This document shows, in pieces, positions 2,176 through 19,719 of a stretch of 64,000 bases of DNA (the stretch's first letter is position 1; the number at the start of each line of letters is the position of its first letter). The position numbers and the translations under genes are program-made. This stretch comes from a virus. Its lineage: Duplodnaviria; Caudoviricetes. The stretch spans positions 1 through 64,000 of the IMG/VR virus record IMGVR_UViG_3300020161_000515. The stretch is one strand, 5' to 3'. The notes below the pieces were generated by a model. That model ran no database searches and had not been told where the DNA came from. It saw only the letters and a program-made list of their open reading frames with translations.

Positions 2176-2574
2176 TTAAAGGTGATCTGCTATTTCAGCA
2201 TTGTAAATGCTATCGGGTTCTTGATCTAACACGACAACATAGAAATCATTTGAATAGGATAATGATTCAAATGTAAAAGATCCATCTTGATTACTTAAAG
2301 TTTCCCTTATTAAGTTTCCAGTGCGTCTATCGTATAAGCGCACTAGCTTGGAAATCGGAACAAAGTCCATCCTTGTTATACCTGCAATATCCTTTGTAAT
2401 GTCTCCTAGAGATTCAAGGGATAAGCCGGATTGATTAAATTTCAAGAATGATTTTAATGGTGGAGCTCTGTTAGTGATAAAACTTGTCTGAGAAGATTTA
2501 AAGTGCAAGGGTGGATTAGTGACCTTCATTGAGGACAATCCGCCATAAAAACCTACTGCACCAAGATCACTCAT
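2176..2574 (-). CDS. Small virion protein with C-terminal 'RxTG' beta-sandwich (family Q; carboxypeptidase-regulatory/prealbumin-like fold inferred)
   Basis: VRLYDRRTGNLIRETLSNQDGSFTFESL...YNAEIADHL matches the C-termini of 31049..31402 and 27489..29912. Confidence 0.7.
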   Translation of the reverse strand: MSDLGAVGFYGGLSSMKVTNPPLHFKSSQTSFITNRAPPLKSFLKFNQSGLSLESLGDITKDIAGITRMDFVPISKLVRLYDRRTGNLIRETLSNQDGSFTFESLSYSNDFYVVVLDQEPDSIYNAEIADHL

Positions 2575-3325
2575 TTACGTCGAAGAACAAATAGTTGCCA
2601 TTAATAACAGAGCAAAAGAGTTTTTTACCCATTGAAGAAACCATGTATCCTGGATTAAAAGGATACTCTGGTAAGCCAGCAAATAGTCCAGGCATTGTCC
2701 CTAGTGTGCATTGAGATAAATGATGGTACAGATGCACACTTGAAAACTGAGGACCTTTTGAATCTAAAAAGAATAGTTTCTTTCCCACCATAGTAGGATA
2801 AAACATTCCATGAAGATTAAAAGCAATGCTGTGATCTTCTGTTTCGTCAAGCATTAATCCAAACGAAGTTGAGCAGATGATAGCCTGGTTTTTAAATCTG
2901 TCATAGTCATTCCATTTTCCAAAGAATAAAACAACCTTACCGCTTATCAGATAAAAGAAATCGTGTGATGTAAACATTTCCCATCTACCGGATATGTCAT
3001 TTTTATCTATCACGAATCCGTTATCATTTTGGTAGATTGAAGGAAAGAAATGGTATGTATGACGATCTGGAAAATCATAGTCTGTTATTAAACTATCTGT
3101 GCAACCTCGTACACAAATTTCTGTATTACTCTCGTAAACATGTATCCAAGTGTTGTCAGGCATTTCATAAATAGTCTGCCTGTCATACTGGTGTTTAATC
3201 TGCCAACCTGCTCCATTCTTTGATCCGTACCCATCAACAAGAACCTTAGTTAAGATATTCCTGAATGATGTGTCATCCATCGTTAAGATGGGAGCACTGG
3301 TATCTGAGTAGCTGTAATGTCTCAT
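2567..3325 (-). CDS. Putative tail appendage protein (family P, shortened paralog)
   Basis: YSYSDTSAPIL...LTKVLVDGYGSKNGAGW matches paralogs at 6814, 29913 and 31402. Start moved from TTG 3331 to ATG 3325, which makes an ATGA overlap with the endolysin stop. Confidence 0.7.
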   Translation of the reverse strand: MRHYSYSDTSAPILTMDDTSFRNILTKVLVDGYGSKNGAGWQIKHQYDRQTIYEMPDNTWIHVYESNTEICVRGCTDSLITDYDFPDRHTYHFFPSIYQNDNGFVIDKNDISGRWEMFTSHDFFYLISGKVVLFFGKWNDYDRFKNQAIICSTSFGLMLDETEDHSIAFNLHGMFYPTMVGKKLFFLDSKGPQFSSVHLYHHLSQCTLGTMPGLFAGLPEYPFNPGYMVSSMGKKLFCSVINGNYLFFDVNE

Positions 3326-3885
3326 TTCCAACTCGGAGGATTAATGAATCCAAGAAAGTATAAACTCTTTTTGGACTTTTCAAATGATACCACACGTTTC
3401 TTAGAGTATATACCATCACCTTCACGGTCAGTGGAACCTATTCCACTCTTAGCACCAGTATTACCTTCAACGGTGATAATGGTTTTATCTGAGGCATTGT
3501 ATTCTTTTACGATGCCAGCATGACCTTTGCCTGGATCAGATCCAAGTCGCATGAAGAATATTGATCCCGGAACAGGAACAAACTCAGTCTTACCGATCTT
3601 CTTAAATCCTTCATATGATGCCTGAGATGATGGACTCATTGTGGTGGCAAATTCTTTTAACACATCTGCAGGAGCCTTAAGATCAGTTAAAGCTTTTCTC
3701 CAAATAGCCTCGCAAAACGAAGCGCAATAAGGCCAGCCAGCTTGCCAGCCAGCGTTCTTCATCCACTCTTTTATCTCAGCACTCAGTTCTTTGTTGTTCC
3801 ACTCAGAATTGGAAACTATTTCGTGAAGGTTTATGAAATTAGATGCCACTTCTATAATTTTATTACCTACTTCACTCTGATTCAT
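3322..3885 (-). CDS. Endolysin / peptidoglycan hydrolase, CHAP domain
   Basis: PYCASF (catalytic Cys), GHAGIV (catalytic His) and ITVEGNT motifs of CHAP amidases. Near the holin. Confidence 0.85.
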   Translation of the reverse strand: MNQSEVGNKIIEVASNFINLHEIVSNSEWNNKELSAEIKEWMKNAGWQAGWPYCASFCEAIWRKALTDLKAPADVLKEFATTMSPSSQASYEGFKKIGKTEFVPVPGSIFFMRLGSDPGKGHAGIVKEYNASDKTIITVEGNTGAKSGIGSTDREGDGIYSKKRVVSFEKSKKSLYFLGFINPPSWK

Positions 3886-6821
3886 TAACTTGCTCCAATA
3901 TAAAATAAACCTTTTTTATCAAACGGGTATGGATCTCCAAATACCGTAACAGGACAGTTACATCTCCAGACACCTAACGCAGACTGTTTGACATCTACTG
4001 ATGACGAAACCCAGGGAAAGTCTGGGCGAATGAATCCTAAGAACATTCTGTCATCTAACCATTCATTCATGCCTGGAACTTGAGTAGTTCCAGATAACAC
4101 TTCTTTACTTCCAGTCTTATGCACCAACATAACAACACCTTCTCGGTGTTCATAATTTGGTTTAGTAACAGATGTTACAGGAGCTTCATCACACCCTTGA
4201 ATAGGAACAGGAACTGTTGTTTCATCTTCTCCAGGACATCCTCCAGTCTTAGCAGGACGTCTAGAAACAGTGCATGAGCTAGACCATCCAAAAATAGAAA
4301 GAGCAGGTGTATTACCTGATTCATCTTGAACACCCATGCTTCCACAGCCAGGATCTCCATTTACTTTACAACACGGAGGTCCAGGCTCACCAGGACAACA
4401 GTTGCCACAACAGACAGGTTTAGTGAAGCATGGCTCCCAATATCTCATTTCCCTTCTTGGTGTCCATTTTCTTTTGCATACGCAATTGCCAGCATTATAT
4501 TTCATGGAAGTGTAGCTTCCAACATAAATATCACCTTTGGCTAGATAGACTGACTCACTATCAGTTTTAGGTATTACGCAAGCAATTCTGGTATAGTGTC
4601 CTCCTGTAAAACTCTCAAACTCAGAAGTAATGCTTCCACCTCTGACAGAAACAACTTTCCAATTTCCACATGATGCTATGTTACAAGGACCTGGATGTGC
4701 GTAAGGAGGCTCATTGCCACATGCTTCTCCACCACCACATCCTTGAGTTTGGTAATTAGAATTAGAATATGATGATAAGTCTGCTGAGTTACCTGATAAC
4801 GAAACTGAGTCAACTGAAAATGATCCTGACGTAGAAACATCTTTAGAGTTTGTAGAGCTACTAAACTGCCGATCTCCACAAGATGATTGATCTCCAGCAT
4901 CCTCTTTTCTTTCGTCAGGAGCAATGTTAGTTTCACAAGCATATCTGATTACTTTCAGATGGTTATACTGATCGTAGAAACAATAGATAGGGCCTTCGCC
5001 AGTAACTCCTTCTAAATCTGTTTTTGGAGAATAAGATAATTCTACATTGTAGCAATTGTATGTTGAATCCCATGTAAATACTCTGTCGTATTTATATCTG
5101 AATTTGAAAGTACCTGAGTCCATCAAATTGTCGCTAACAGATACAGCACCTTTCATAGCTTCATAAAACTCTTTAGAGTGAGGAAGTCCTCCATCAACTC
5201 TATTTTTAGTTTTAAGATCCTTTTTTAATGTTTCCATTTCTTCTGGTGTAGCGTTTTCTGAGTCTTGTATGACCCACCACCACGCACCTTCTTCAATATC
5301 ACCGTTAGCACAAATCTTTGTAATAGTATCTACAGCAGAATCTCCAGTGTCAACAATATCTGGATCATTGTATTGGTGAATAAATGTTGCTTCTGAACAG
5401 GTATACACAAATTGAATTGATGGTCTTACTGCCGCACGATCTTGTGCTTTCTTTTCTTTTTGTTCTTTGGTGTCACCAGGAGCATCTTGCATTTTAAGTT
5501 TAGCTAATGACTTCTCCCACTGATCTTTTAAGCTTGTTTCCTTTCTGATCTTTTCTTCTTCAAATACACTTTCCATTTGAAAGATAATAAAAGCAGTATA
5601 AAGGTAAGACTTATTTGGTGAATCCCAGTCAATCGTAACTACAGACAATTCTCTGCCATCCCAATCACTCTTCCAACCATATCCACCAACGTCAGCACCT
5701 TTGGTGTACGCCTTCAAATCTGTTTCTAGAACTATATTTCTGGTAGGACTGCAACTGGCTAGAATATAAGCTTCATAAGCATTTCTTTTCGCAATGCTGA
5801 GTGATTGAGTCCTCATCCACTTCTGAAGCATCCTGCCTTCTTTTGATGGTTGAAGTAAATTAATAATTACACCATTCCGCATCTGCAACAGATAATAGTT
5901 GCCTTGGGTGTCGGTGGCAAGCTTGGTCATTCCTTTATCAAGAGATGCTATTCTATTTGCTTTCTCAGACTCAGGACCCCAGTTCTCGTCACCATCAAGT
6001 CCTTTGTAAAAATACATTCTATTAGGAAATGTTCCTTTACCATAGATAGTTTTGTTTTTGCTGCCAAACTGAGCTTGAACGAATAGTCTGGTCTTCCCTG
6101 AGAATATACTTGCTGGCAGTTCTATCTTTATTAAAGTTTTCTTTTCTACAATATCGCAATCACAGACATCTTCACTGGTAGGAACTTTAAAAGCATTTGG
6201 TTTTTCTCGTTTTATCTTTCTTCCGTAGCTGTCTAATCCTAAAGACTTTCTGAAAGTATCTTGCCAAACAAGATAAGCATCACCTACAGATGTCTGAATA
6301 CCAGCATTGGGTGACACAGGCAATATAGGAACACCTACAGGTTCTCTTGACATTGGTGTGTGAGAGTATGATTGAAGCTCACCAGTGCCTTTAGGATCTG
6401 TGCAGTCAACACCTCTTTTAGGTGTTTCACATCCAATAGCTACAGATTTTGTAGTTCCTTTTTTACCACCTTTGTCTTTAACACCATTGCCACCAGTAAC
6501 TCTAGATGGAACAAGTGTAGGACATTCTCCTTTGTTCTCAGTAACCGTATATGATACTTTTAAGAATCCTATTACCGGACACCAATCTTTATTAGTGTAA
6601 AGAACTTCAGGAAGATATGATTTTGGATTAGTCCACAGAGTAGGCGATAACTGAACAGCACCGCTTTCTAGATATAAAGAACTTGTGCTATCTAAGAATC
6701 TGTTAAATGGCCCAAATGGTTGGGCATAAAACGTAGCAGATTCGGCAATAGTAGTGCCATTTGGAGCTATCTCACCTTTTCTAAATGGCTTTAGTTCTTT
6801 TGTTAAGTCAACACTAGGCAT
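3885..6821 (-). CDS. Large cysteine-rich putative virion protein (978 aa)
   Basis: Long ORF coupled to neighbours by overlaps, in a structural operon. About 19 Cys within ~230 aa near the C-terminus. No family recognised. Confidence 0.7.
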   Translation of the reverse strand: MPSVDLTKELKPFRKGEIAPNGTTIAESATFYAQPFGPFNRFLDSTSSLYLESGAVQLSPTLWTNPKSYLPEVLYTNKDWCPVIGFLKVSYTVTENKGECPTLVPSRVTGGNGVKDKGGKKGTTKSVAIGCETPKRGVDCTDPKGTGELQSYSHTPMSREPVGVPILPVSPNAGIQTSVGDAYLVWQDTFRKSLGLDSYGRKIKREKPNAFKVPTSEDVCDCDIVEKKTLIKIELPASIFSGKTRLFVQAQFGSKNKTIYGKGTFPNRMYFYKGLDGDENWGPESEKANRIASLDKGMTKLATDTQGNYYLLQMRNGVIINLLQPSKEGRMLQKWMRTQSLSIAKRNAYEAYILASCSPTRNIVLETDLKAYTKGADVGGYGWKSDWDGRELSVVTIDWDSPNKSYLYTAFIIFQMESVFEEEKIRKETSLKDQWEKSLAKLKMQDAPGDTKEQKEKKAQDRAAVRPSIQFVYTCSEATFIHQYNDPDIVDTGDSAVDTITKICANGDIEEGAWWWVIQDSENATPEEMETLKKDLKTKNRVDGGLPHSKEFYEAMKGAVSVSDNLMDSGTFKFRYKYDRVFTWDSTYNCYNVELSYSPKTDLEGVTGEGPIYCFYDQYNHLKVIRYACETNIAPDERKEDAGDQSSCGDRQFSSSTNSKDVSTSGSFSVDSVSLSGNSADLSSYSNSNYQTQGCGGGEACGNEPPYAHPGPCNIASCGNWKVVSVRGGSITSEFESFTGGHYTRIACVIPKTDSESVYLAKGDIYVGSYTSMKYNAGNCVCKRKWTPRREMRYWEPCFTKPVCCGNCCPGEPGPPCCKVNGDPGCGSMGVQDESGNTPALSIFGWSSSCTVSRRPAKTGGCPGEDETTVPVPIQGCDEAPVTSVTKPNYEHREGVVMLVHKTGSKEVLSGTTQVPGMNEWLDDRMFLGFIRPDFPWVSSSVDVKQSALGVWRCNCPVTVFGDPYPFDKKGLFYIGAS

Positions 6822-7731
6822 ACCAAGTATCCGAAGTTTCTAGAGCGTATGTTCTTCCATTGCATTTAACAATCATGAAAGATTTTCCAGCTAAAGCTCC
6901 GTTACCGTTAAAGGTGTCACCATGATTGAAGTATGATCCGTTATGACAAACATTCCATAATCCAGGAAGTCTTCCTCTGACGCAATTGATTGTAGGCTCA
7001 GTTACAAACACAGGAGATAAAAATAAATTACCATCAACTGGATTAGGAAACGGAAGTAAGTCTTTACTTGTGTCAGAGTGTTTACCACACAGTATGCTTG
7101 ATCCAACCTGGGTATAGCTACGCATTAGCCAATGGTTTGAGATGCTTTCATTGGTGGGTGAAAATGTTCCAAATGAGTTTGAAACATTATTGTAGTCTGT
7201 AGGACTTCTGCCAGTGATGATTAAATTAAATTTATCAGGATCTAAATTAATATCTCTGAATGAGATAAACTCACCAAAGCAATATCCATCAGCGGTGGCA
7301 AAGTTTGAAGAACTATTGTGGTTAATAAACAAGTAAAAGAACTTGTTGTTAGCCACTATCATCCAACCTCTTGCTATTGCATCTTTTGTGATACTTTTTA
7401 AGACTCCGACACCGAAAGGACTCTGAACAGCACTAGGGGTAGCATCGTCACCCGTATTGAGGGCGGTCATCTTGGAAAATCCACACATAACCATAATGTT
7501 TTCGTATCCAGTATAACCGTCATTGAGTCGAAGATAAAACTCATTACCCAATGGCTCAGCCTTCAATACTGAATTATGTAGTCCATCATAATATGGATTA
7601 GTCCAACCTGCTGGCTGTTTAGAACCGTATCCTGTTACTAGACAACTTGTTAGGATGTTTTCTAAAGATCCTACTTGTCCTGTTAAATATAATGCTCCAG
7701 AATCTGAAGCTAGGTATGTTTGTACGCTCAT
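6814..7731 (-). CDS. Putative tail appendage protein (family P)
   Basis: YLASDSGALYLTGQVGSLENILTSCLVTGYGSKQPAGWT...VRGRLPGLW...HGDTF...LETSDTW, shared with three paralogs in the window. Confidence 0.8.
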   Translation of the reverse strand: MSVQTYLASDSGALYLTGQVGSLENILTSCLVTGYGSKQPAGWTNPYYDGLHNSVLKAEPLGNEFYLRLNDGYTGYENIMVMCGFSKMTALNTGDDATPSAVQSPFGVGVLKSITKDAIARGWMIVANNKFFYLFINHNSSSNFATADGYCFGEFISFRDINLDPDKFNLIITGRSPTDYNNVSNSFGTFSPTNESISNHWLMRSYTQVGSSILCGKHSDTSKDLLPFPNPVDGNLFLSPVFVTEPTINCVRGRLPGLWNVCHNGSYFNHGDTFNGNGALAGKSFMIVKCNGRTYALETSDTWYA

Positions 7732-9368
7732 TCTGAATCCAGTCTGCTTATAACTTGTGAGTTAGATTTAATTGCATCGTTTTTGTCTTCCAATATCATA
7801 GCATACACAACGTCTGAATTTGTAGTGATAGCTATATGACCTGTGTCAGGAGATGAAACACCTTGATTTGAATAAGTACCTAGGACATGGTCATACGCCA
7901 CAACTTGTCTTGATACTGGTCTGGTTAAAGTATTTCTCTTAAAAGATCGTACTCTGAGATTAAGCAATTTAGGATCTGACGTTAGGTTAATATCTAACCA
8001 CTCTTTTTCAGACTTACCAAGGTTCATAAGAATGTGCTTGTGTGCAGCCTCAGATTTCTTAACAGAGAACGTTAACTTTCTAGTTAAAGAGTTGACACCG
8101 TTATTAATATTGATCCATACTTCATAGACTTTGGTAGCTCTATGTTTAGGAATAAATCCATAAAGCTTTCTGTCCTTAGGAGTTATCTTAATGAAAGAAC
8201 AATCAGTCTTCACTATCTTTAATAAGAATGGTCTGGCCTCATCATAGAATGTTTTACAAACAATATCTAAGGCGTATGAGAAAGTTTGCTCACAGTCATA
8301 CTCACCTAGATAAAGTGGTGACAAAAGTTCTAAAGTGTTTTTGATATAGTAGGCGTTAAGAGCAGAAGTTTCAACTTCATCAAAGTAAGGATACAAATAA
8401 TTCTGAGCAACGTTTTCTGTATCCATCATCATAAAACGTTCTGTGTTCATAGCACCATCGTATGAGAACACATAATCAATATTTATCTTTTTCTTTCTAG
8501 AAGTTCTTTTTAAAAAGGCTTTTACTTCTTTATGACCCCAGTTTTTATTCTTTGAAAGAATCAAAGCACAAACGCCTGCCACTAATGCAGCGGCATAGTC
8601 ACCACTAGATTTGTAACGAACCACTTTATCTAAGCACTCTACTATGATGTTTGTGCATGGCGCATTGACGGATACACATGATCCATAATTGCAGAACTCA
8701 TAATAAGATAAAGTTTCGTCAAAACCACCTACAGTGATTACGTTGGTATTTCTGACTGGTGATGCAAAATCTAAATTGAAATTACCAACTCTTTCACCGC
8801 TTTCAAAGTAATCACCTTTGGCACAGGCAACAGTTGTGATATTTCTATCAAGTAGTCTTTGAACTGATTTTGCTAAAGGATCATTAGATAGGCTTGTAAG
8901 AGTGTGATAGTTTTCGTCAGTAGGCATTTCAAGAAAATCTAAAAGCACTACTTGTTTTCTAGAAGGAATTGATACGGCAAGAACAGTGCTTATTGCACTG
9001 GAAACAGATGCTCTTAAATCTGTATAGTCCAGTGCAATACTGAAAATCTGAGCTTCTTTTGCGACACCATACTTCTTTCCACCTACAACAGAAGCAAGTT
9101 CTGTTCCTCTGCCAACTGTGTCAACTGTGCTAGAAAGATTATGAGATCTTCCAGCCAGTTCAATAGATCCTGAAATGATCCCAGTGCTTAAAATAAAGAT
9201 ATCTACCGAAGCGGCATTAGTTGAAAATGCTCCAGCCAAGTAGATAGAATTGGAATAATCACGCTTACAGATAAGGTCAAGATACCAGCCACGTCTAGCC
9301 AAAGCACCACTAAACGAAGCTTCTGCATCCTCAAGATGAATGTATCCAAAGCCATAAAAGACCGCCAT
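7728..9368 (-). CDS. Subtilisin (S8A, proteinase K/aqualysin-like) fold protein, catalytically dead, with a C-terminal virion-type domain
   Basis: Recognisable S8A scaffold (GWYLDLICKR, GGKKYGVAKEA, SPVRNTNVITVGG, FCNYGSCVSVNAP, ALVAGVCALILS). The triad motifs read ILSTGI (DTG D->S), GRGT (HGT H->R) and SSGDYAA (GTSMA S->D). Confidence 0.85.
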   Translation of the reverse strand: MAVFYGFGYIHLEDAEASFSGALARRGWYLDLICKRDYSNSIYLAGAFSTNAASVDIFILSTGIISGSIELAGRSHNLSSTVDTVGRGTELASVVGGKKYGVAKEAQIFSIALDYTDLRASVSSAISTVLAVSIPSRKQVVLLDFLEMPTDENYHTLTSLSNDPLAKSVQRLLDRNITTVACAKGDYFESGERVGNFNLDFASPVRNTNVITVGGFDETLSYYEFCNYGSCVSVNAPCTNIIVECLDKVVRYKSSGDYAAALVAGVCALILSKNKNWGHKEVKAFLKRTSRKKKINIDYVFSYDGAMNTERFMMMDTENVAQNYLYPYFDEVETSALNAYYIKNTLELLSPLYLGEYDCEQTFSYALDIVCKTFYDEARPFLLKIVKTDCSFIKITPKDRKLYGFIPKHRATKVYEVWININNGVNSLTRKLTFSVKKSEAAHKHILMNLGKSEKEWLDINLTSDPKLLNLRVRSFKRNTLTRPVSRQVVAYDHVLGTYSNQGVSSPDTGHIAITTNSDVVYAMILEDKNDAIKSNSQVISRLDSE

Positions 9369-11041
9369 TATATAAGACCGCTAACACCTATAGAGCTCCA
9401 ATCGTCCCATACGTCAACCTCAACTCCAGCAGGAACTATTCTTTTCACCCATACCGCTTTACATTTCAAAGGAGCAAGATCACCAATTACTAAAGGATTA
9501 AGTCTTGATGGTGTTGTGAACGTAACTCCAGCAGGAGCTGTATTCTCATCAGCAACAGTAACAGCTATTCCAGTAGTAAAACCATCACCCACTGAAGCTG
9601 GATCTAAACCCATCTGAAGTGTGTCAACTTTGGAAACTGGTTGAGAGTTAATGAAGATTTTTATATCCCACATAGTCTCAGTTAGGTGCGTGTTCGTCAC
9701 AAAGAAGCATCTGTATTCAGTATCTCCAAAATGAGACTCATAACGCTTAACAGAATCAAATAGCTCATTCTTCTTATTGCTGGAAGTTATGTCGGTGACC
9801 TGAAAGCGAACTCCTGTCTGAGGAAGAAGTGCTGTGACAATATCTATTGTAACCCATTTAGATTTAGTGGCATTAAACATCTTGTACTTGCCATTAACAG
9901 ATAGTTCAGTCCAATCACCCCATGTCCAACCATGAGTTTCAATATCAAGATCCTGGGTTGATTCTAGAATGAATGTAGGCGTGCTACCAACCTGAATTAC
10001 ATTAAGATTTTTTTGCCACCTATCTTCTAGTATGGCACAACGTTTATTACCTAGATCATATACTATTGAAAATGATTCTTCTGGTTCCCAGCCACCAGCA
10101 TCTATCACATTTATTCCTGTCAATCCTGTATTGAATTTGTATTCTGGTTTAGAAGTATCAGTTGCAGATGCTGCAACATTAGAAACAGAATAAGTATTCT
10201 TTTTGTAAACTTCTGATACCACTTCTGAGAATTTCTTGAATGACGAACTTCCTGGGATGCTTGTAAAGACATGGCAGCAGTTATCAAATTCAGGTAATAC
10301 AGGTAATGTTGAAAGTGAAGCCCCGTTAGAGAAAGAAAACGCTAAGTTAACCTCAACATAACCATTCAATGTTTTAGAATCAGGAAGTGCTATTCTAGAT
10401 GAGTATGAAGGTGTGTAAGTGGTTACCTGGCCTACTGTAGCACTCGTAATTGATAACACTTTTCTGGTGTATAAATCTAATGTGAAATCACCATTAGAAT
10501 TAAAAAAGTATTTAGTCCAAGTTGGGTATCCAATTCCAAAACTCCAAGGTATTGAATTAAACAACAACTCTCTTGTGCCAGCTATCTGAGTAGTTACATC
10601 TGTCATAGACTCAAAATCAGCAAACACGTCTGGAACAAGAATAGCGTAGTATTCTGTAAGTGTTTGAGATACCGTGACTCGTCTTAAGAATATAGAATAG
10701 CTAGTTGCTGGATCTAGCCCAACAACTGATAAATTCTGAAAGAAAGTTGGTAAGGTGTCAATCCATGTAAGACCAAGAAGAAACGGATCTTGGCATCTGC
10801 CATTGACAAACTCTTGTGATACACCATCTACATAATACTTGGTTTTTCTTTTTGAAGATATTGTAGAGGAAGATAATGAAAATCTCTTAGTAGGTTCTGG
10901 ATTTAAAAACGTAGCAACGGACTGACTTAAAATAGTCTTAGAAGATACTTGACCACCTAACGAAGAATTAGAATCCTCATTGTTTATTCCTCCACTTAAT
11001 TTAAGTTGAAGGTATGCGCCTAAATTTGAAGAAACTGTCAT
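9368..11041 (-). CDS. Putative tail-tip/baseplate-attached protein (family R) with ~360 aa insertion
   Basis: N-terminal LQLKLSGGINNEDSNSSLGGQVSS and C-terminal NELFDSVKRYESHFGDTEYRCFFVTNTH...GDLAPLKCKAVWVKR. Confidence 0.75.
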   Translation of the reverse strand: MTVSSNLGAYLQLKLSGGINNEDSNSSLGGQVSSKTILSQSVATFLNPEPTKRFSLSSSTISSKRKTKYYVDGVSQEFVNGRCQDPFLLGLTWIDTLPTFFQNLSVVGLDPATSYSIFLRRVTVSQTLTEYYAILVPDVFADFESMTDVTTQIAGTRELLFNSIPWSFGIGYPTWTKYFFNSNGDFTLDLYTRKVLSITSATVGQVTTYTPSYSSRIALPDSKTLNGYVEVNLAFSFSNGASLSTLPVLPEFDNCCHVFTSIPGSSSFKKFSEVVSEVYKKNTYSVSNVAASATDTSKPEYKFNTGLTGINVIDAGGWEPEESFSIVYDLGNKRCAILEDRWQKNLNVIQVGSTPTFILESTQDLDIETHGWTWGDWTELSVNGKYKMFNATKSKWVTIDIVTALLPQTGVRFQVTDITSSNKKNELFDSVKRYESHFGDTEYRCFFVTNTHLTETMWDIKIFINSQPVSKVDTLQMGLDPASVGDGFTTGIAVTVADENTAPAGVTFTTPSRLNPLVIGDLAPLKCKAVWVKRIVPAGVEVDVWDDWSSIGVSGLI

Positions 11042-11050
11042 AAGTAACCT

Positions 11051-11947
11051 TTAGAAAAATGCTTTAATGCCTATTGAACTGAAATCGTTTCTGAAGTCAG
11101 TAGCTAAATTAGCAGGAACTATTCGTTTCAACCAGAAGGCTTGTGCTTGTCCTGGAGATAAAGTTCCAATACTTAGTGGTGTTGCTTCTGAAGGAGTATT
11201 AAAAATAACATCTCCTGGAGCCATGCTTTCATTGAGAACTTGTGACGCAACACCTTCAGAAACACCGTCACCAATACCACTGGGATCTAATCCCATTTGA
11301 AGTACGTCAGCTCCTGAGGCTGGTTGATCTTTTAAATAAAGTCTCAGGTCATAAATATACTCTGATGGATGTGCATTATACACATAAAAACATCTGTATT
11401 CAGTATCACCTGTCTTAGATTCATATCTAGATATGTTATCCCACATCTCATTAGGAGATATTGTTTCTACTTTGTACGATAGCAAGAAATAAGTATTAGG
11501 AGATAGATCAGTAGGATGTAATGGATTTAACTCTATGTCTGCAATCATCCATCCAGTAGTAAGATCATTATCTTGCAACAAGTATCTTCCATTAGAATCT
11601 AGGTACTCAGCTTTTCTTTCATCTTTAGGAGCCCACCCTAAACCTGACGAAGTTGGCTGACCTAGCCAGATTCGTCTAGTATATGGTTGGTAGATTATGG
11701 AAGTAGTTACTAAAGAGTTTATAGCCAAGGGATATCCACTACATCTTACAATATTGATGTAGTTTATGTATTTTAAAAACTCTACATTAGTAGGAGTTAC
11801 ATGAAATACAACTCCATTTCTAATAGTGCATTGCTGGCTTGACACAATCCTAGAGGACATTTCACCACCCACACTACTTAATTGCAGAAGGTTGCTCTGT
11901 CCTCCAGAGTATCTAAATTCTAAATAACCTGCCGACGATACAGACAT
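11051..11947 (-). CDS. Putative tail-tip/baseplate-attached protein (family R) with ~120 aa insertion
   Basis: LEFRYSGGQSNLLQLSSVGGEMSS ... NEMWDNISRYESKTGDTEYRCFYVYNAH...GTLSPGQAQAFWLKR. Confidence 0.75.
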   Translation of the reverse strand: MSVSSAGYLEFRYSGGQSNLLQLSSVGGEMSSRIVSSQQCTIRNGVVFHVTPTNVEFLKYINYINIVRCSGYPLAINSLVTTSIIYQPYTRRIWLGQPTSSGLGWAPKDERKAEYLDSNGRYLLQDNDLTTGWMIADIELNPLHPTDLSPNTYFLLSYKVETISPNEMWDNISRYESKTGDTEYRCFYVYNAHPSEYIYDLRLYLKDQPASGADVLQMGLDPSGIGDGVSEGVASQVLNESMAPGDVIFNTPSEATPLSIGTLSPGQAQAFWLKRIVPANLATDFRNDFSSIGIKAFF

Positions 11948-14900
11948 TACACTAACGCCTTGTAAGCTATTCTGCTTACATCAATAACAGCAGGTGCTTC
12001 TGTTTCAGAAGTGCTGTACCGTTTGATCCAAAATGCTATTGACTGTCCTGGTGCAAGAACTCCTACAATCAATGGCTCATCATAAGTAGCCTTTGTGAAA
12101 GTAACTCCTGCTGGAGCTGCATACACATTAGCTACAGAAGCAGCAACACCATCTTTACCACTTGGATCTAGTCCAACTTCAAGTACGTCTTTGGCACTTG
12201 GTTGATCTGCTATGTAAATACCTACCTGAATAGCAGAATCACTTGGATGTGTGTTCTTTAAATATAAACATCTGTAATCAGGTGTGTGATTATAAGTGCT
12301 GGCCTTGGTCATGGTATCAAATATCAGATTATTTTGTGATGTGTAATCTGAATCTATTGCTATGATGTAGTTACCTTCCAGTGCAGTCATGCTGGTTAAA
12401 TTCAACATAAGATACGGAGAATACTTCTTAAATGCAAACGATGCGTTATCTATTTCATTATTTCTGTTTATGTTGAATCGTGTCTGAGCCTTTAATGCTT
12501 GGTCAGATATTAATGGTCTTAATTCTTCTGAAGCATCTGGGTGTTTCGTATTATTTAAAATTTTAGCAGTAACATCTGTTCTGTCAACATTGTATCTAGC
12601 AAACCAAACAGGATCTTGTCTAATTTTATTTTCTAGGAAAGGAGCAAAAGTGTTGTTCTTATTCCTATTAAAAATAAATGTTTTCAAGTTTCTAGATGTT
12701 GGTGGTGGAAATCTATCTAACGAAACCTCATTAGAGCTTGCTATTACCGTATCATCATTAAAGGATTTACGCACCTTCATGACTGCCGTCTTAGGCAATT
12801 TAAAATACGTTACCTTATCCATCTTAGAAAATGTAAAAGTAAATTCTACCGATTCAGAAGTTGGAAGTAATTCCACCACTAATAAATCACCACTCCATCT
12901 TGTGTCTGAAACTGGTGTGACAGTCTTTAATGTAAAATATGTATTGAAAGATATTGCTGTAAAAGCCAATATTACTGGTGTAGTAAGAGCATCACTCATC
13001 AAGTTATTCTTTAGCAAATTCTGAACAGTCATGCTAAGTGTGAAATCATCATAGAGTTTCAAATGGCCTGCCACTGGAGCAGTTAAGTTGAGAGTAAATT
13101 CTAACGGTGGTGGTGGAGGTATAACCATACCAGTAGTCTGAACAACAACTTCTCCATCAGGAACTCCAACAACGTCATCTGCTATTGTGAGTAACATAAA
13201 GGTGAATGATTTGCCAGTTATTGATCTAGCTAAAGGCTTTACTCTTATTTGAATTGTTGTGGTAGACCCACTTACATAATCAACTAAAAGATCTTCACTT
13301 AATTCTGTTTCAACACCATCTCTAACTCGAAAGAATTTTGAAGGTGAAATATACTCAAGAGCTCCTGTTGCTAATCTTAGTTGAGTCAAATTCAATGCAG
13401 TAGATGTCAGTGTGAGAGTTATTAAATCTCCATGCTCTAAGGTTGTCTTATCAGTTGTAAGAACTGTGTCATCTGCAACTTGTAATAGTGGCTCATGTAT
13501 TCTTAATAGGTTGGGAATCAAAGGAGTATTAAAATCATCTGATCCATTTATAAAAAATTCCAAATAATAGCTATCTGCATAAACATATGGAATGGGAGTA
13601 TTGGTAGAGATAAATCCAGAAACTACCGTTGCCGATCCAGTTGCAAGAGTTTTGTAAAATGCAGTAGACTTTCTAAGATTCAATTTCCAATGAATAGTCT
13701 GACCTTCAAAGTAGTTCAGGTTGGAAATTGTTATTAAGCCTGAACTGTTTTCATAGTAATTTTCAAGATAGTTGATAAAAGGAATTTTTAAAGTCAAATT
13801 GGATGACTGTCCTAAAGGTCCTACATACACACTTGAAATTGTGTCATAAGAACTGTTAGCAGGTATTCTTGAGTACGTTAAAGAAACCTCTTCCATAACA
13901 AACACCAGATTAAGTGATGTTGAATTTGGAATTAGTTTATCTAGTGTTACTGTTATAGTTTTAGATGGTTCTGCTGCGGTAAGCTTTACCACTATACATT
14001 TATATCCATCAGCATCAGCATTGATTATCAAAGGTGCTCCATTGTCACCTGGGATTGAAGATGCAACCACATTGGCTTTAGTACCATCTGATATAATTAA
14101 ATCTTCCATCGTAACCAAAGAACCCATACAATAAATTGCTACATACTTCTGGGCTTTGTTTTCAAATGTTAAGTTTTCAGCAAGATACGTTGAGCCTACT
14201 GTTAGTGTTAACGGAACTTTATACTCTAAAGTTGTGATAGAAGGTACTAATGAAATAACAAGAGGTCTTGGAAAGAACGTAGCAGGAATAGTAAATTGTT
14301 TTTCTGCTAGAATGGTTCTATCTTCTACTGCCTTTTCTAATTTAGCCTTCAACAAAATTTTAAATGTATAAGGAGCGGCAGCCCTTGATAATCCGTTAGC
14401 ATTAGAAAATGACAAGGTGCTGACAATTTCGCCATTAGAAAGAATGTTCTTTGTAGCTATTTGAGGGCTCATCTTGTTAAAAGAAGTAATGCTAAAATTA
14501 TCAAGAGATATGTTTTGCAAACTTTCTAAATGAATCTCAGACAGCAACCCTGGTGTTCCCTCTATACTGGATACCTGATCCACAACGAAACTGTCATAAT
14601 TTGCTACTACAAATTGGGTAGTAATAGCGTCACCAGGATTAGTGAAAACAGCATCAGCTATATTTCCAGATATGGACATATCCGGAGGAAAGGCTAAAGG
14701 TGATATCTCATACTGATGGAACGCCAGAAGTGCTCTGTCATTAGTGGCCCAAGATACATATGCGTATAAGCTAAGAGTTATTACATATGGAGCATCTAAC
14801 TTACTTAAATGATTAAGATTATTTAATGCCATAGACTCGCTTACTGTTCCATCAGAAGTTATTAATAATTCTGATGCAGCAGTTGCCACCTTCCTAAACA

Positions 14901-17900
14901 CGTTCATTGAGAAATTGTTAAATGAAATTCCTTTTCTGTCTCCATTTTTATCATAAAATTGTGAAGACTCCATGATAAGCTCAAATTTAAGTCCTGAGTA
15001 TTTATTAGCGCCCATAGCGGTGGTCTGAACATTTTCTTTATAAAAGGTTTCATAATTAGTTACGCCTATGGAAAAAGCAAGAGCATCTCCTTTACTTAAA
15101 AAATCTTTACCAGGTAATGACGTAACTATTTCTAATGGCCCAGGAAGTGCAGAAGCAGCTATAGAAAAACTCTTTGTTGATAGTATGGAATCAGATGCAC
15201 CATTAGATCCTCTTAGAAACATCTTTAATGTGAACTCAAACGGAGCTTTTGCTGCTTGTAGAAGTGAAACAGTTTTCAGATTTAGAGTTGAAGTTTTAGT
15301 TCCGCTGGTAGATAAAGATGCTCTCAGTTCATAGTAACCATTGCTAGTAAAATTTGGTAATGTGTCAAAGTTGGCGAAACTTACACCATCAGCAGATTCT
15401 AGTGTCATATAAAATATAGCCGGATCATTAACTATTACATCTGTTGCACTTATAGTTATTGATACAGAGTCACCTAACTTAGTAAAAGTTGCATCTCCTA
15501 TTGACGCTGTTGCTGCCATTGCAGCGGGTGTGGCAAAGGTCAAAGTTGGTGAATGTCCTAGAGAATGTCCATAAATTGCTCCCACAGCCCTAAATCTAAA
15601 AGTCTTTCCAGCCAGACTTGCTGCTGAAACATTCCAAGGCCTTTGATATCTAATGGTCTTAGTGCGTGTGCCAGGAAATGATACGAACTCTAAAGTGGTT
15701 ACTATTCGTGTTGTAGAAAACTCATTATCTACTACTACGAAATCTGTTATAGGTACAACACCTTCTGTAGTAAGATAAATTCTTTCCTCAGGTACGTCTA
15801 AGCATGTGACTGTTATTTCTAACTCAGCATCTCCGCTAGGATTTACGTTGTTTACAGAAATAGTAGCTGTGTTTGAAACATCCAGAATATAAGAAATATT
15901 ATATCTCTGGACTATCATAAACTCGCTCGCAGTTGAGGCATCCGTATAAATAGAGATACCCATTGTCCAGCCAGGTTGTCCTACCGCTGGAACAGTGGTG
16001 GAGATGTTTATTGATTCTCCAGAAACAACTGCCGTTCCGTTAGTCGAAGGTCGTATCCAAGCATTTCCTATAGGACTAACTCTGCCAACATACCAATAAA
16101 GAGTTGTTCCATCAGCTAGTCCAGTTAAACCTGATACTGTAAAAGATATAGCAGTAAGTTCTGGGTAGGAAGCGTTTAAATTAAATGTTGCTGGTAATAG
16201 TGCCATATTGGGATAATTGTATTCAGGTGGAAAAGCATCAGCAGTTATTAGATACTGTTGAGTAGATAAAAGTGTTCTTGTTTCTGAAGTTCTTGTAAGC
16301 TTAGCCCACAAAGATAAACTTAACGCATAAGGTGCGCCTGATCTTATCAATCCTGTCAGATTGTCTAACATCAAGTTTGCACTGTATGTCCCATCAGATA
16401 ATATTCTTGTAAAGTAACTTCTATTCGTTATCCTAGTTAAGGATGATACATCAAAATTATCAAGATTGGCTACTTGATTTGGATTTGCTGTAAGCTCAAT
16501 CAATAATCCATCTACACCCGCTGAACTAGATACTTGTTCCCTTACAAAAGTTTCATAATTTGTAACAGTAAAAGACGCTCTTACAGCATCATGTACCTGG
16601 TCAAATACTATGTCTGAAAATGAACCTGTTACTGACAAAGCATCTACTGGAGGATCTACTGGAGGTGGAGCAGGGAAGGCGTCAGCAGTAAGAGTATATT
16701 GATGTGATGCTATTACATCTCTAGCTTCCGATGTTCTGCTTGGTTTAGTAAGTAAAGATATCGTGAAGTCATATGGAGCATTTTCTCTGGAAAGACCAGA
16801 TAAGTTATTTAGCGTTATAGCACTGGTATGTGCTCCATCAGATATTCTAAAAAGCTGACACAATTTTCCAGTAATTCTAGTAAATGATTCTATTGAGAAA
16901 TTGTAAAAAGAAATAGCACTATTTGATTCTAATACTAATTCTGTCAATAAACCTGGAATTCCTGGAACACTTGATATTTGAGAATCTTCAAATGCAGTAT
17001 AATTACTAACAGATGCTGATGCTGAAATGCTATCTCCTATTGCATCAAAAAAATTAATGTCTGAGATGCTACCAGTGACAACAGCAAAATTATTTTGATT
17101 AAAAGCCGTAGGAGAAATGTAGAATGTGTCAGACTTTAAAACTAATCTTGTTTCAGAATTCTTTTTTAACTTTGTTTTTAAAGAAAGAGTAAAAAAATTA
17201 TTAGAATCTATTCCAGTTAAATCTGAAAGTGCTATAAGAAAAGTTACAAGTCCATCAGATGTAGCGAAGTGCCTGGCAAGATTCTTATTGACCTTAGTCA
17301 TGTTGGTCAATGATAGGTTATCAAATGACGCGGAAGTAGGATCCATTGGAACTTTTGAATACGGTTTTAACTCCAACTCAAATAAAAGTCCTGGTGTTCC
17401 CTCAATACTTGACCCTTCACTTTCTATAAAAGATGCGATATTGCTTATATTAACCTTAGCATAGATAGAAAACCCTATCTTTGTAAACTCAGTCCTAGCC
17501 GACATCTCGCTAAGAATTTGAACGGATGAGTCTGCATGATAACTTACTGGAGGAGTGTATCCTAAAATAAGACCAGTAGAACTTACTATCTTAAACTGTA
17601 ACGGAGTGTCATATAACTGTTGTGAAGATTTGTATTCGTTACTTACCCATTTAAGTTTTACATTAATTGTTCCAGGAAACTCTTCATAAACAACTATTTG
17701 GTTATCCCAAATTCTAGTTGTTGATGAATCTGTTACTAAAGAAAAACAACTAAAGCTCCAGTACGAAGATTCTAAAACAAAGTATATTGATCCTGATGGA
17801 CTATCTAGACACGTTATTGCGTACTCTAGAATGTCACTCTTTCCTGGGGTTAAATCACTAACTTCAACAGTACAAGAATTGTTAACATCAATTATATTAC

Positions 17901-18228
17901 AGAGTGCTATGTCATAAACAATTCTGCTAGTGCCTATATTATGTGAATCCGTTACTATAGATAATCCCATCTTTTCATTTCTATACACCATTGGGATGTT
18001 GGTGGAAATGCTGATAGATTCATCTTGGACTATAGCTGATGTGTAATCTCCTGAATTGAAATTACCTGTTGCTATTGTTCCACCACTACCTGACGGATAC
18101 ACTATCCCAACAGCCCAGTAAACCGTAGTTCCGTTAGCTATTCCAATTAGACCTGAGACAGTAAATGTAACGGGAGTACCTTCGTCGTAAGAAGGCTCTA
18201 AGTTCGTAGTGATGTTAAGTAATGACAC
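11947..18228 (-). CDS. Giant repeat (Ig-like inferred) tail appendage protein, 2,093 aa, ending in the C-terminal half of family R
   Basis: About six ~140 aa repeats (GLL.EL.LES....F.NF...R..APY.F) and 2-3 copies of a second repeat, with poly-Pro hinges. C-terminal NNLIFDT...DYRCLYLKNTH...GVLAPGQSIAFWIKR. Starts at a GTG directly after the upstream TAG. Confidence 0.8.
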   Translation of the reverse strand: MSLLNITTNLEPSYDEGTPVTFTVSGLIGIANGTTVYWAVGIVYPSGSGGTIATGNFNSGDYTSAIVQDESISISTNIPMVYRNEKMGLSIVTDSHNIGTSRIVYDIALCNIIDVNNSCTVEVSDLTPGKSDILEYAITCLDSPSGSIYFVLESSYWSFSCFSLVTDSSTTRIWDNQIVVYEEFPGTINVKLKWVSNEYKSSQQLYDTPLQFKIVSSTGLILGYTPPVSYHADSSVQILSEMSARTEFTKIGFSIYAKVNISNIASFIESEGSSIEGTPGLLFELELKPYSKVPMDPTSASFDNLSLTNMTKVNKNLARHFATSDGLVTFLIALSDLTGIDSNNFFTLSLKTKLKKNSETRLVLKSDTFYISPTAFNQNNFAVVTGSISDINFFDAIGDSISASASVSNYTAFEDSQISSVPGIPGLLTELVLESNSAISFYNFSIESFTRITGKLCQLFRISDGAHTSAITLNNLSGLSRENAPYDFTISLLTKPSRTSEARDVIASHQYTLTADAFPAPPPVDPPVDALSVTGSFSDIVFDQVHDAVRASFTVTNYETFVREQVSSSAGVDGLLIELTANPNQVANLDNFDVSSLTRITNRSYFTRILSDGTYSANLMLDNLTGLIRSGAPYALSLSLWAKLTRTSETRTLLSTQQYLITADAFPPEYNYPNMALLPATFNLNASYPELTAISFTVSGLTGLADGTTLYWYVGRVSPIGNAWIRPSTNGTAVVSGESINISTTVPAVGQPGWTMGISIYTDASTASEFMIVQRYNISYILDVSNTATISVNNVNPSGDAELEITVTCLDVPEERIYLTTEGVVPITDFVVVDNEFSTTRIVTTLEFVSFPGTRTKTIRYQRPWNVSAASLAGKTFRFRAVGAIYGHSLGHSPTLTFATPAAMAATASIGDATFTKLGDSVSITISATDVIVNDPAIFYMTLESADGVSFANFDTLPNFTSNGYYELRASLSTSGTKTSTLNLKTVSLLQAAKAPFEFTLKMFLRGSNGASDSILSTKSFSIAASALPGPLEIVTSLPGKDFLSKGDALAFSIGVTNYETFYKENVQTTAMGANKYSGLKFELIMESSQFYDKNGDRKGISFNNFSMNVFRKVATAASELLITSDGTVSESMALNNLNHLSKLDAPYVITLSLYAYVSWATNDRALLAFHQYEISPLAFPPDMSISGNIADAVFTNPGDAITTQFVVANYDSFVVDQVSSIEGTPGLLSEIHLESLQNISLDNFSITSFNKMSPQIATKNILSNGEIVSTLSFSNANGLSRAAAPYTFKILLKAKLEKAVEDRTILAEKQFTIPATFFPRPLVISLVPSITTLEYKVPLTLTVGSTYLAENLTFENKAQKYVAIYCMGSLVTMEDLIISDGTKANVVASSIPGDNGAPLIINADADGYKCIVVKLTAAEPSKTITVTLDKLIPNSTSLNLVFVMEEVSLTYSRIPANSSYDTISSVYVGPLGQSSNLTLKIPFINYLENYYENSSGLITISNLNYFEGQTIHWKLNLRKSTAFYKTLATGSATVVSGFISTNTPIPYVYADSYYLEFFINGSDDFNTPLIPNLLRIHEPLLQVADDTVLTTDKTTLEHGDLITLTLTSTALNLTQLRLATGALEYISPSKFFRVRDGVETELSEDLLVDYVSGSTTTIQIRVKPLARSITGKSFTFMLLTIADDVVGVPDGEVVVQTTGMVIPPPPPLEFTLNLTAPVAGHLKLYDDFTLSMTVQNLLKNNLMSDALTTPVILAFTAISFNTYFTLKTVTPVSDTRWSGDLLVVELLPTSESVEFTFTFSKMDKVTYFKLPKTAVMKVRKSFNDDTVIASSNEVSLDRFPPPTSRNLKTFIFNRNKNNTFAPFLENKIRQDPVWFARYNVDRTDVTAKILNNTKHPDASEELRPLISDQALKAQTRFNINRNNEIDNASFAFKKYSPYLMLNLTSMTALEGNYIIAIDSDYTSQNNLIFDTMTKASTYNHTPDYRCLYLKNTHPSDSAIQVGIYIADQPSAKDVLEVGLDPSGKDGVAASVANVYAAPAGVTFTKATYDEPLIVGVLAPGQSIAFWIKRYSTSETEAPAVIDVSRIAYKALV

Positions 18229-19719
18229 CTATGGGCTCACTAATAAAGGAAAAGAAAATGTTAACTCATCTATTACGGTAACAGGAGCAGATCTGCAAAA
18301 TCTCTTTGCAAATTTTTCTTTCTCGTATGTGTTAGTGATAAGCTCTGACTCTAAGAATGTGTTTTCTGGAACTTCAACGTATTCGTAGTACCCATCATCT
18401 TTTAAATGATAGTCCATAGGAACTTTTATTTCTACAACATCTCCAGTTAAGAATCCATGAGGTATCGCATTACCACCAGTTATCTCAGCAGTAAAATCAT
18501 ATTGGTCATCTAACAGAGTTTCAAGGGAATGGTATGAAACAGATGCATCTGATAAGACTCTGCAAATAGCTAAGAAACCTTCAACTCTAAATTCTATTAC
18601 AAACGGAGTAAAATTTTCCCTAACTCTTTCATGTCTTGTTATTTTGAATCTAGTAGGTGAGTCATATTCAACATCGTATGCTCCATTAAAATCGTTAAGA
18701 TATGTACCCTTTGGTCTAGCAATAGGATATAAGCAGATTATGGAATCATCAGATAAGAAATGAGGTTCTTCTTCATTTATGTAATATGAAATAATTTCCG
18801 CTTTCTTATCAAATAAAGAATAGCGTATCAATCCAGATAGTCTGGGTTGAACACTAGGCACTGTAAAAGGATACTCATAGACGAAAGTATAGTCGTCAAG
18901 TACCTTTACGCTTGCAGTACAGTAGAATGGATGAACCGCTGTTCCTTCAAATTTACTAACATCAATAACATCTCCATTGGAGTATTGATGAGGTACTACA
19001 GCACCGTTCCTAGATATCTGACCTTCAGCATATCCAATCTTAGCCTTTATCTGTACTATCTCTTCATCTATTCTTAATTGTGTAGAGTTAAGATAGTTAA
19101 CTTCAAAAAGATCTGCATCTTGTGAAATATACATTGGCTGAACAGCCTGGCGTCCTACTGTAAGATCACTAGCAGTTATTCCTGAACTGTGCTTTAAGTT
19201 TAGAACTTCTAAGTCTTTGAAATTATTTAAGACTGGATCATAGTTGTAATACATGCCATTCTTAAAAACTCTTGTGCTTACTAATCTTAAAATGTACTTT
19301 CCAACGCCTTCTAAAATTACTGGTGATGGATGAACAGTCCAAGGTATAGCTGGACTAAACATTTCAATAGACGATGCTGAGATATTTGACAACTCTGTTA
19401 TCCTGGTGCTGAATAAACCCATCACACCATCTTTTATCTTTAGACCTACATAGTTTTTATTAACAGTGTCTCCAAGAACAGGAGTCTTGTTTGAATCGGT
19501 TAAGTCAAATCCATTGACATCTATTATCTTTACTGAGCCTCCAACAGTGAAAGCAGAGTTATTTGTAACGCTTGTGCTATTACCCAAGGCATAATATTTA
19601 GCATTAAATTTTGAAACTTTGGTAGAGCTAATTCCACCACCAAGACTAGCCTGAGGATTGGTATTAGCGTCACCACCTGAGTATCTGAATTCTAGGTATG
19701 CTGCATTTATTTCAGTCAT
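18229..19719 (-). CDS. Virion protein carrying only the N-terminal half of family R plus two small beta-barrel repeats
   Basis: YLEFRYSGGDANTNPQASLGGGISST at the N-terminus. Two H-x-x-x-x-GD-V repeats (PHQYSNGDVIDV, PHGFLTGDVVEI). Ends in TAG in frame with the next ORF. Confidence 0.75.
   Translation of the reverse strand: MTEINAAYLEFRYSGGDANTNPQASLGGGISSTKVSKFNAKYYALGNSTSVTNNSAFTVGGSVKIIDVNGFDLTDSNKTPVLGDTVNKNYVGLKIKDGVMGLFSTRITELSNISASSIEMFSPAIPWTVHPSPVILEGVGKYILRLVSTRVFKNGMYYNYDPVLNNFKDLEVLNLKHSSGITASDLTVGRQAVQPMYISQDADLFEVNYLNSTQLRIDEEIVQIKAKIGYAEGQISRNGAVVPHQYSNGDVIDVSKFEGTAVHPFYCTASVKVLDDYTFVYEYPFTVPSVQPRLSGLIRYSLFDKKAEIISYYINEEEPHFLSDDSIICLYPIARPKGTYLNDFNGAYDVEYDSPTRFKITRHERVRENFTPFVIEFRVEGFLAICRVLSDASVSYHSLETLLDDQYDFTAEITGGNAIPHGFLTGDVVEIKVPMDYHLKDDGYYEYVEVPENTFLESELITNTYEKEKFAKRFCRSAPVTVIDELTFSFPLLVSP

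Follow-up and report, generated by a model that had tools for sequence, protein, structure and literature searches.

A subtilase (S8) domain need not act as a protease. In PCSK9 the catalytic triad is intact and is used once, for autoprocessing; the protein stays bound to its prodomain and acts by binding the EGF-A domain of LDLR, for which it uses a surface remote from the active site, and its catalytic domain is followed by a beta-rich C-terminal domain. CspC and CspA of Clostridioides difficile have retained the S8 fold and, as is general for Csp proteins, a prodomain; catalytic residues are missing from them, yet selection maintains them, and they work through binding or signalling instead of cleavage. 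The Csp proteins are regulators of spore germination in bacteria and belong to the Csp branch of S8 (PMC6636752; PMC7200643; PMC12880746). Here, we describe a phage-encoded subtilase pseudoenzyme found in a 64,000-nucleotide stretch (hereafter, the window) of the IMG/VR virus record IMGVR_UViG_3300020161_000515, a 78.4-kb record with an estimated completeness of 56%. The gene, which we call the pseudo-S8 gene, is an uninterrupted 546-codon open reading frame (ORF) with an ATG start (positions 7728 to 9368, minus strand), and its product belongs to the S8 superfamily as a non-peptidase, closest to the proteinase K branch. We favor the reading, to which we give a probability of roughly 55%, that this protein is a non-catalytic subunit of the virion tail tip and not the receptor binder that determines specificity; its S8 globule would be a scaffold or a docking body, and accessory adhesion would come from the C-terminal beta-sandwiches.

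The closest counterparts of the pseudo-S8 protein are proteinase K, aqualysin and the proteinase K-like enzymes of Vibrio and Serratia (MEROPS S8A; 2b6n, 4dzt, 1s2n and 1ic6), which it matches over the whole mature fold (Z of 35 to 36.5, root mean square deviation [rmsd] of 2.0 to 2.2 Å over ca. 263 residues, 21 to 26% identity). It differs from them in lacking the triad, the oxyanion Asn, the cleft walls, the propeptide and the signal peptide, and in carrying two insertions and an immunoglobulin-like (Ig)/beta-sandwich tail. The likeness to the PCSK9 catalytic domain is nearly as close (Z of 33, rmsd of 2.0 to 2.3 Å, 26% identity), although the pseudo-S8 protein has neither the intact triad nor the bound prodomain of PCSK9. 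With CspC and CspA it shares the features by which a pseudoenzyme is recognized, namely an S8 fold, substituted catalytic residues and maintenance by selection, all of which are found in the pseudo-S8 family; unlike them, it is phage encoded and proteinase K-like, lacks a prodomain, carries Ig-like domains at its C-terminus and lies in a tail module. No Csp entry was among its top sequence or fold matches, the best of which were proteinase K-like, and the comparison suggests that it is an analogue of the Csp pseudoproteases and not a member of their clade.

Also close are the profile phrog_3677 (1,125 positions) and three metagenomic tandem proteins, P0017, P0019 and P0027. The tandem proteins have two or three S8 domains each, mostly degenerate and several of them with the Ser...Asp pattern of the pseudo-S8 protein, but they are 965 to 1,171 amino acids (aa) long and have no He_PIG plus beta-sandwich tail. 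S8 domains are also present in proteins of cultured phages (Bacillus phages pW2, Tsamsa, SP-15 and Goe3, Agrobacterium phage Atu_ph07, and cyanophages), some of them annotated as baseplate or fibre; these are 26 to 30% identical to the pseudo-S8 protein over the S8 domain only, and none has its architecture. Our search of open-access text found no paper on phage pseudo-subtilases or tail-associated subtilisin-like proteins; a paper on phage T5 matched, in which subtilisin was a reagent only.

Fold and catalytic positions

The S8 homology of the product is far beyond chance. PF00082 matches it at 40 bits (Pfam gathering cut-off, 21.8; E value, 3.7e-10), the top phmmer matches among Protein Data Bank (PDB) sequences are the proteinase K-like enzyme 2b6n and aqualysin 4dzt (E value, 4e-11), and the best PHROG match is phrog_3677, annotated as "protease" (E value, 6.5e-23); NCBIfam yielded only protease models far below threshold. 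An AlphaFold2 model of the full protein, built from an 80-row alignment, has a mean predicted local distance difference test score (pLDDT) of 89.4 and superposes on 1s2n, 2b6n and 4dzt with VIA Z scores of 36.3 to 36.5 and an rmsd of 2.0 Å over 263 of ca. 275 residues (span, residues 24 to 342). The PCSK9 catalytic domain is the next fold match, and Foldseek matched the S8 region with an E value of 5e-19. An earlier note on this DNA, made from the letters and their translations alone, had held that the subtilisin fold is retained; the comparison with S8 structures which it proposed bears this out.

Nor is the gene an assembly artifact, since a near-identical twin copy (98.9% identity) is present on a 50.9-kb contig (L007) of an independent ENA assembly. 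S8 peptidases typically, but not invariably, carry an I9 propeptide and a secretion signal. The pseudo-S8 protein has neither a propeptide nor a signal peptide, because the S8 fold already begins at residue 24, and no Inhibitor_I9 domain (PF05922) was detected by Pfam in the whole 78-kb record. The uninterrupted frame and the missing presequences are therefore as the earlier note had described them.

The catalytic columns were read in an alignment of 80 sequences, comprising 63 S8 homologues and the 17 members of the protein's own family (see below). The positions of the catalytic Asp, the catalytic His and the nucleophilic Ser are occupied by Ser61, Arg87 and Asp257, respectively, and Gly185 stands where 62 of the 63 homologues carry the oxyanion-hole Asn (subtilisin Asn155). 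Three pairwise phmmer alignments with PDB sequences give the same triad assignments, so that the Asp-to-Ser, His-to-Arg and Ser-to-Asp replacements first noticed by eye, codons included, are correct, as is the reading of the oxyanion motif AAGN as CAKGD. The changes extend to the substrate cleft. The motif N-x-S-L-G-G of one wall (around residue 125, subtilisin numbering) is replaced by L-x-D-x-L-(E/R)-x-P149 together with a family-specific insertion of ca. 10 aa, and the G-S-G of the second wall (around residue 100, subtilisin numbering) is lost. Relative to proteinase K-like enzymes, the family-specific insertions lie at residues ca. 145 to 156 and ca. 189 to 197. The view that the structural motifs are intact thus holds for the overall S8 fold but not for the cleft motifs SLGG and GSG. 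The protease machinery of the fold (triad, oxyanion Asn, cleft walls and propeptide) is gone; the Asp-His-Ser triad in order, the oxyanion Asn and both cleft walls, by which an active S8 enzyme is known, are all missing, and it is for this reason that we class the protein as a non-peptidase.

One alternative is that hydrolytic chemistry survives in another arrangement, either as a swapped Ser61-His87-Asp257 triad in those relatives that keep the His or as a Ser/Lys dyad with Lys257. Ser61 and Asp257 are indeed invariant in the five closest clusters, four of which keep His87, and the Ser...Asp pattern appears again in domains of P0019 and P0027. However, the window phage has Arg at position 87, the position of Ser61 is that of Asp32 of subtilisin, a residue which is buried and hence beyond the reach of a substrate, and neither the oxyanion Asn nor either of the cleft walls is left. 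Moreover, there is no invariant Ser, Thr, His or Lys column anywhere in the protein across the 17 aligned representatives, which makes a conserved hydrolytic chemistry unlikely. We consider a non-canonical hydrolase highly improbable, and an active swapped triad was rejected on the grounds that no catalytic column is invariant and the oxyanion Asn is lost.

The state of the cleft also bears on the proposal that the protein is a decoy which absorbs host protease inhibitors or host proteases as a form of counterdefense. In principle, canonical inhibitors could still be bound by a protease that is dead but keeps its fold. Such inhibitors, however, contact the cleft strands and the oxyanion hole, and both cleft walls as well as the oxyanion hole are remodelled here; in addition, the gene lies among structural tail genes, to which it is coupled, rather than among early or antidefense genes, and its product has no secretion signal. 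We therefore hold the decoy, which was among the functions first suggested for this protein, to be very unlikely, and both inhibitor decoy and canonical peptide binding were rejected because of the remodelled cleft.

Family, variation and selection

When 1.84 billion cluster representatives were searched exhaustively with HMMER, 16 further ones were found that align over the full length (540 to 605 aa, 21 to 46% identity), giving a family of ca. 17 cluster representatives. PF00082 matches all 17 (best E value, 3.9e-17), yet the nucleophile position is never occupied by Ser, and a complete triad does not occur in any of them; His is kept at the His position in 6. The survey of homologues for triad state that the earlier note had called for thus points the same way as the window protein itself. 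The GHGT motif is kept in the four nearest relatives, and Arg occurs at this position only in the window phage with its 99% identical twin and, separately, in P0007. The His-to-Arg change is therefore a late, lineage-specific event, with an independent origin in P0007.

Where position 87 is charged, the charge at position 257 is opposite in six of seven pseudo-domains and like in none, the residue pairs being E-K (three times), D-K, D-R, R-D and R-H. In the window protein, Arg87 and Asp257 may accordingly be joined by a salt bridge or a hydrogen bond, which would fill the former active site.

Purifying selection maintains the pseudo-S8 gene. Compared with its twin in L007 it shows 34.5 synonymous and 6.5 nonsynonymous differences, a ratio of nonsynonymous to synonymous rates (dN/dS) of 0.05; against more distant relatives the ratio is 0.11 to 0.37, with dS saturated. 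It might be argued that the protein is simply the decaying remnant of a once-active phage protease, given that every catalytic residue has been lost. Against this, the frame is intact in every copy, the dN/dS is 0.05, the full-length architecture persists down to 21% identity, and synteny is conserved (see below). Decay, for which the relaxed selection anticipated as a possible refutation should have been visible, was rejected on the last three of these points, and we regard its probability as negligible. Conversely, the idea that selection kept the fold while removing catalysis gains support from the low dN/dS, from full-length relatives lacking the nucleophilic Ser at identities as low as 21%, and from the conserved synteny.

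Other searches added little to the family. For cultured-phage relatives, Megablast of 20 kb of surrounding DNA gave no match; no homologue turned up in GTDB genomes when these were scanned with the close-family alignment, and a word-indexed search with the 17-sequence profile found no further members. Scans of viral contigs with sub-alignments returned six loci, only two of which have a full-length gene.

A separate group of metagenomic proteins, P0017, P0019, P0027 and P0044 (loci L019 to L022), is 925 to 1,171 aa long and carries two or three tandem S8 domains, nearly all of them degenerate. Their catalytic positions read, for example, SNDD/GQNE/GQNH and GPDI/SQDN/DHND, and the proteins look like arrays of pseudo-subtilisins; the contigs that encode them are just 3 to 4 kb long.

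Tail-module context and proposed role

All genes from the tape-measure gene (a 4,039-aa ORF; PF10145 E value, 8e-43) to the lysis genes are on the minus strand, with baseplate and fibre/tail PHROGs between them. Of the lysis genes, the endolysin gene (phrog_9589) lies in the window and a holin gene was called in the twin. The whole looks like a siphovirus-type tail module, because no sheath gene is present. Within it, the pseudo-S8 gene overlaps both of its neighbours at start and stop, by 1 and 4 nucleotides, an arrangement indicative of translational coupling. The order pseudo-S8 gene, gene for a protein of ca. 300 aa and gene for a protein of ca. 930 to 1,090 aa is kept in the seven loci listed for the third gene in Table 1, and it holds even where the identity of the pseudo-S8 protein drops to 25 to 28%; on one short contig (L004), a single neighbour is visible on each side. 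The downstream 305-aa protein is 33 to 37% identical to a protein whose gene immediately precedes the tail fibre gene in Xylella phage Salvo and in many siphoviruses of Xanthomonas, Stenotrophomonas and Pseudomonas.

Comparison with the twin places a mosaic boundary exactly at the junction of the 557-aa gene and the pseudo-S8 gene. From the pseudo-S8 gene to the 146-aa gene that precedes the holin gene, the two phages are 96 to 99% identical; upstream, a 298-aa fibre-like gene is ca. 80% identical, the 557-aa gene is 81.5% identical, and a 2,093-aa gene is swapped for one of 1,150 aa. The pseudo-S8 gene therefore goes with the conserved core, not with the fibre genes that are exchanged. Conservation within its product is highest in the S8 domain, and no region is hypervariable.

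These observations bear directly on the possibility that the pseudo-S8 protein is the primary receptor-binding protein, setting host range by contact of the old cleft or the C-terminal domains with a pilus, S-layer or outer membrane protein. Its tail-distal position and its Ig-like domains would suit such a role, and the binding of LDLR EGF-A by PCSK9 (fold match with a Z of 33) is a precedent for an S8 domain as a binding surface. But a host range determinant would hardly be expected to be 98.9% identical in the closest pair of phages when the fibre-like genes beside it are ca. 80% identical or swapped, nor to have the S8 domain as its most conserved part and C-terminal domains that are not hypervariable; furthermore, the window encodes much larger fibre-like candidates (2,093, 2,383 and 807 aa). 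We consider this role rather unlikely, and the part of the earlier proposal that named a receptor, S-layer or pilus binder loses ground in so far as it implies a host range determinant. The remodelled cleft and oxyanion hole, on the one hand, and the 98.9% identity of the twin, on the other, are what lead us to disfavor the decoy and the host range binder. What stands of the proposal of a virion-displayed binding module is its general form, which is plausible in view of the position in the run from tape-measure to lysis genes, the coupling to both neighbours and the Ig-like domains.

The Ig-like domains lie in the C-terminal extension. The S8 fold reaches to about residue 342, so that this extension amounts to ca. 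205 aa, rather than the ca. 240 aa estimated at first, and comprises a putative cadherin-like Ig domain and, after it, a second beta-sandwich. Residues ca. 343 to 440 match cadherin, SraP and GH107 Ig modules with Z scores of 10 to 11, not far above a background of 7 to 8, and Pfam detects He_PIG (PF05345) in 6 of the 17 relatives (best E value, 2e-7). For residues ca. 441 to 530, a sequence motif possibly resembles domains of the transthyretin/CarboxypepD_reg type. A stand-alone model of residues 301 to 546 has a pLDDT of 68, with fold matches dominated by the Ig domain. Paralogy of the C-terminal domains within the window is limited to weak matches (E values, 0.014 to 0.02), one of them a phmmer match of the last beta-sandwich to a C-terminal segment of the 132-aa ORF at 2176 to 2574 (E value, 0.02), which itself has a sub-threshold SdrD_B match. 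The description of the C-terminal end as a Q-like segment finds an echo in this match, but nothing stronger was found for it. In related loci, the module is likewise succeeded by ORFs of ca. 140 aa that resemble the one at 2176 to 2574. Among phage proteins, Ig-like domains are almost confined to those of the virion, a pattern that Fraser et al. reportedly described in 2006.

We thus return to the tail-tip subunit as the preferred reading. In this scheme, the rigid S8 globule would act as scaffold or docking body for a complex with the two downstream proteins, the former His and Ser positions being plugged by a polar or charged pair (Arg87-Asp257 in the window phage), and the two C-terminal beta-sandwich domains would point outward and confer weak accessory adhesion to the cell surface. 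The annotation of other phage S8-domain proteins as baseplate or fibre is in line with a place in the tail. Several findings weigh against this scheme. The synteny and selection signals are equally expected from a 546-aa assembly factor that is not part of the virion; the charge covariation between positions 87 and 257 comes from few, phylogenetically related sequences; He_PIG is not picked up by Pfam in the window protein, whose C-terminal pieces, searched in isolation, gave no Pfam match at all; and tblastn of 50,697 phage records for cultured relatives found no full-length family member, only matches to the S8 domain at 26 to 29% identity.

The assembly factor just mentioned is the main alternative. 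The dead fold might bind the 305-aa adaptor, the Cys-rich protein of ca. 1,000 aa, or both, help to fold or attach them and then leave, in the manner of fibre chaperones or of a folding aid acting in trans like a subtilisin prodomain. Strict co-occurrence and translational coupling with both downstream genes, high conservation without a hypervariable region, and the natural ability of proteases to bind peptides are all compatible with this. On the other hand, known fibre chaperones are small and usually encoded after their client gene, whereas the pseudo-S8 protein has 546 aa and is encoded before its would-be clients; two Ig-like/beta-sandwich domains are typical of exposed virion proteins; and the canonical peptide-binding cleft is remodelled. 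We regard such a factor as a possibility to be taken seriously, albeit an unlikely one.

If the protein is a tail-tip component, it would represent a new building block of the siphovirus baseplate, in the form of a stable, monomeric scaffold with Ig-like modules. One broader, and decidedly speculative, possibility is that single- and tandem-domain proteins together form a phage-specific class of subtilase pseudoenzymes, in which the fold has been turned into a tail-tip adhesin or docking body whose former active-site groove, lined by the co-varying charged pair and the family-specific insertion with its Pro, binds a host surface ligand or the phage's own fibre protein; if true, the pseudo-S8 protein would be the founding example of the class, and siphoviruses would have a receptor-binding or adaptor scaffold of a new type. 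Genes of this kind are labelled "protease" in databases (phrog_3677 and PF00082), and phage annotation would wrongly predict a virion or lysis protease from them. The family-wide, selected loss of the protease machinery corrects this label and adds a viral case to the few subtilase pseudoenzymes, of which CspC and CspA and, by function, PCSK9 are examples. The family also bears on subtilase folding, in that its members fold without the propeptide that subtilisins usually need.

Feature coordinates and neighbouring genes

Table 1. Positions of the pseudo-S8 gene, its parts and its neighbours in the window (residue numbers refer to the pseudo-S8 protein)
Feature	Positions	Strand	Basis or remarks
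Whole gene, subtilase pseudoenzyme, 546 aa	7728..9368	-	ORF; PF00082 E value, 3.7e-10; AlphaFold2 pLDDT, 89.4
N-terminus before the fold, 23 residues, without signal peptide or propeptide	9300..9368	-	pLDDT of 46-57 at residues 1-20; fold alignments begin at model residue 24
Proteinase K-type S8 fold, residues 24-342	8343..9299	-	VIA Z of 36.5, rmsd of 2.0 Å, 263 residues aligned to 1s2n_B; 2b6n_A and 4dzt alike
Ser61 at catalytic Asp position (ILSTGI)	9186..9188	-	Asp in 61/63 S8 homologues; Ser in 13/17 family members
Arg87 at catalytic His position (GRGTELA)	9108..9110	-	His in 61/63 S8 homologues; family H 6, T 3, E 3, R 2
Remodelled cleft wall: SLGG replaced, family-specific insertion, Pro149	8901..8936	-	Alignment columns 142-156; P149 in 17/17
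Gly185 at oxyanion-hole Asn position (CAKGD)	8814..8816	-	Asn in 62/63 S8 homologues; Asp in 14/17 family members
Asp257 at nucleophile Ser position (SSGDYAA)	8598..8600	-	Ser in 61/63 S8 homologues; family K 6, D 5, R 2, H/A/L/I 1 each
Putative cadherin-like/He_PIG Ig domain, residues ca. 343-440	8049..8342	-	VIA Z of 10-11; Pfam He_PIG in 6/17 relatives
C-terminal beta-sandwich, residues ca. 441-530	7779..8048	-	All-beta secondary structure in full model
Upstream neighbour, 557 aa, fibre-like, phrog_13135 C-terminal domain	9368..11041	-	Stop overlaps pseudo-S8 start (TAATG)
Downstream partner, 305 aa, phrog_9600 ("tail assembly protein")	6814..7731	-	phrog_9600 E value, 2.9e-44; start overlaps pseudo-S8 stop (ATGA)
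Third gene of the trio, 978 aa, Cys-rich	3885..6821	-	Syntenic homologues in L002, L003, L005, L007, L008, L010, L014

For the 978-aa Cys-rich protein, searches of Pfam, PHROG and NCBIfam were negative, no homologue was found in cultured phages, and an ESM Atlas search gave no usable match; its Atlas model has a pLDDT of 0.28. The protein is conserved in all related loci, and its gene sits where Salvo-like phages have the tail fibre gene.

The phrog_9600/phrog_9998 "tail assembly protein" group has four paralogues in the window, at 6814 to 7731, 29913 to 31040, 31402 to 32469 and 2567 to 3331 (the last having the N-terminal part only). Each of the first three precedes a tail-end gene, which is fibre-like in the case of 29913 to 31040, and the fourth comes after the endolysin gene. 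These paralogues may be adaptors that mount different fibres.

Upstream of the pseudo-S8 gene, the segment from 9368 to 18228, when set against positions 3970 to 10001 of L007, looks like a swappable fibre cassette beside a fixed core. The ORFs at 18229 to 19719 and 11947 to 18228 are in frame with each other here (CCA TAG GTG). In the twin (L007, positions 2442 to 7422), their counterparts are split by TAA-T-ATG and lie in different frames, the second being a different protein of 1,150 aa; amber readthrough at the locus from 11947 to 19719 is therefore not conserved. Finally, an HNH endonuclease gene (40188 to 40922; phrog_953 E value, 8e-67) lies within the tail run, just after the tape-measure gene, and HNH genes also adjoin the pseudo-S8 homologue in L008 and L009.

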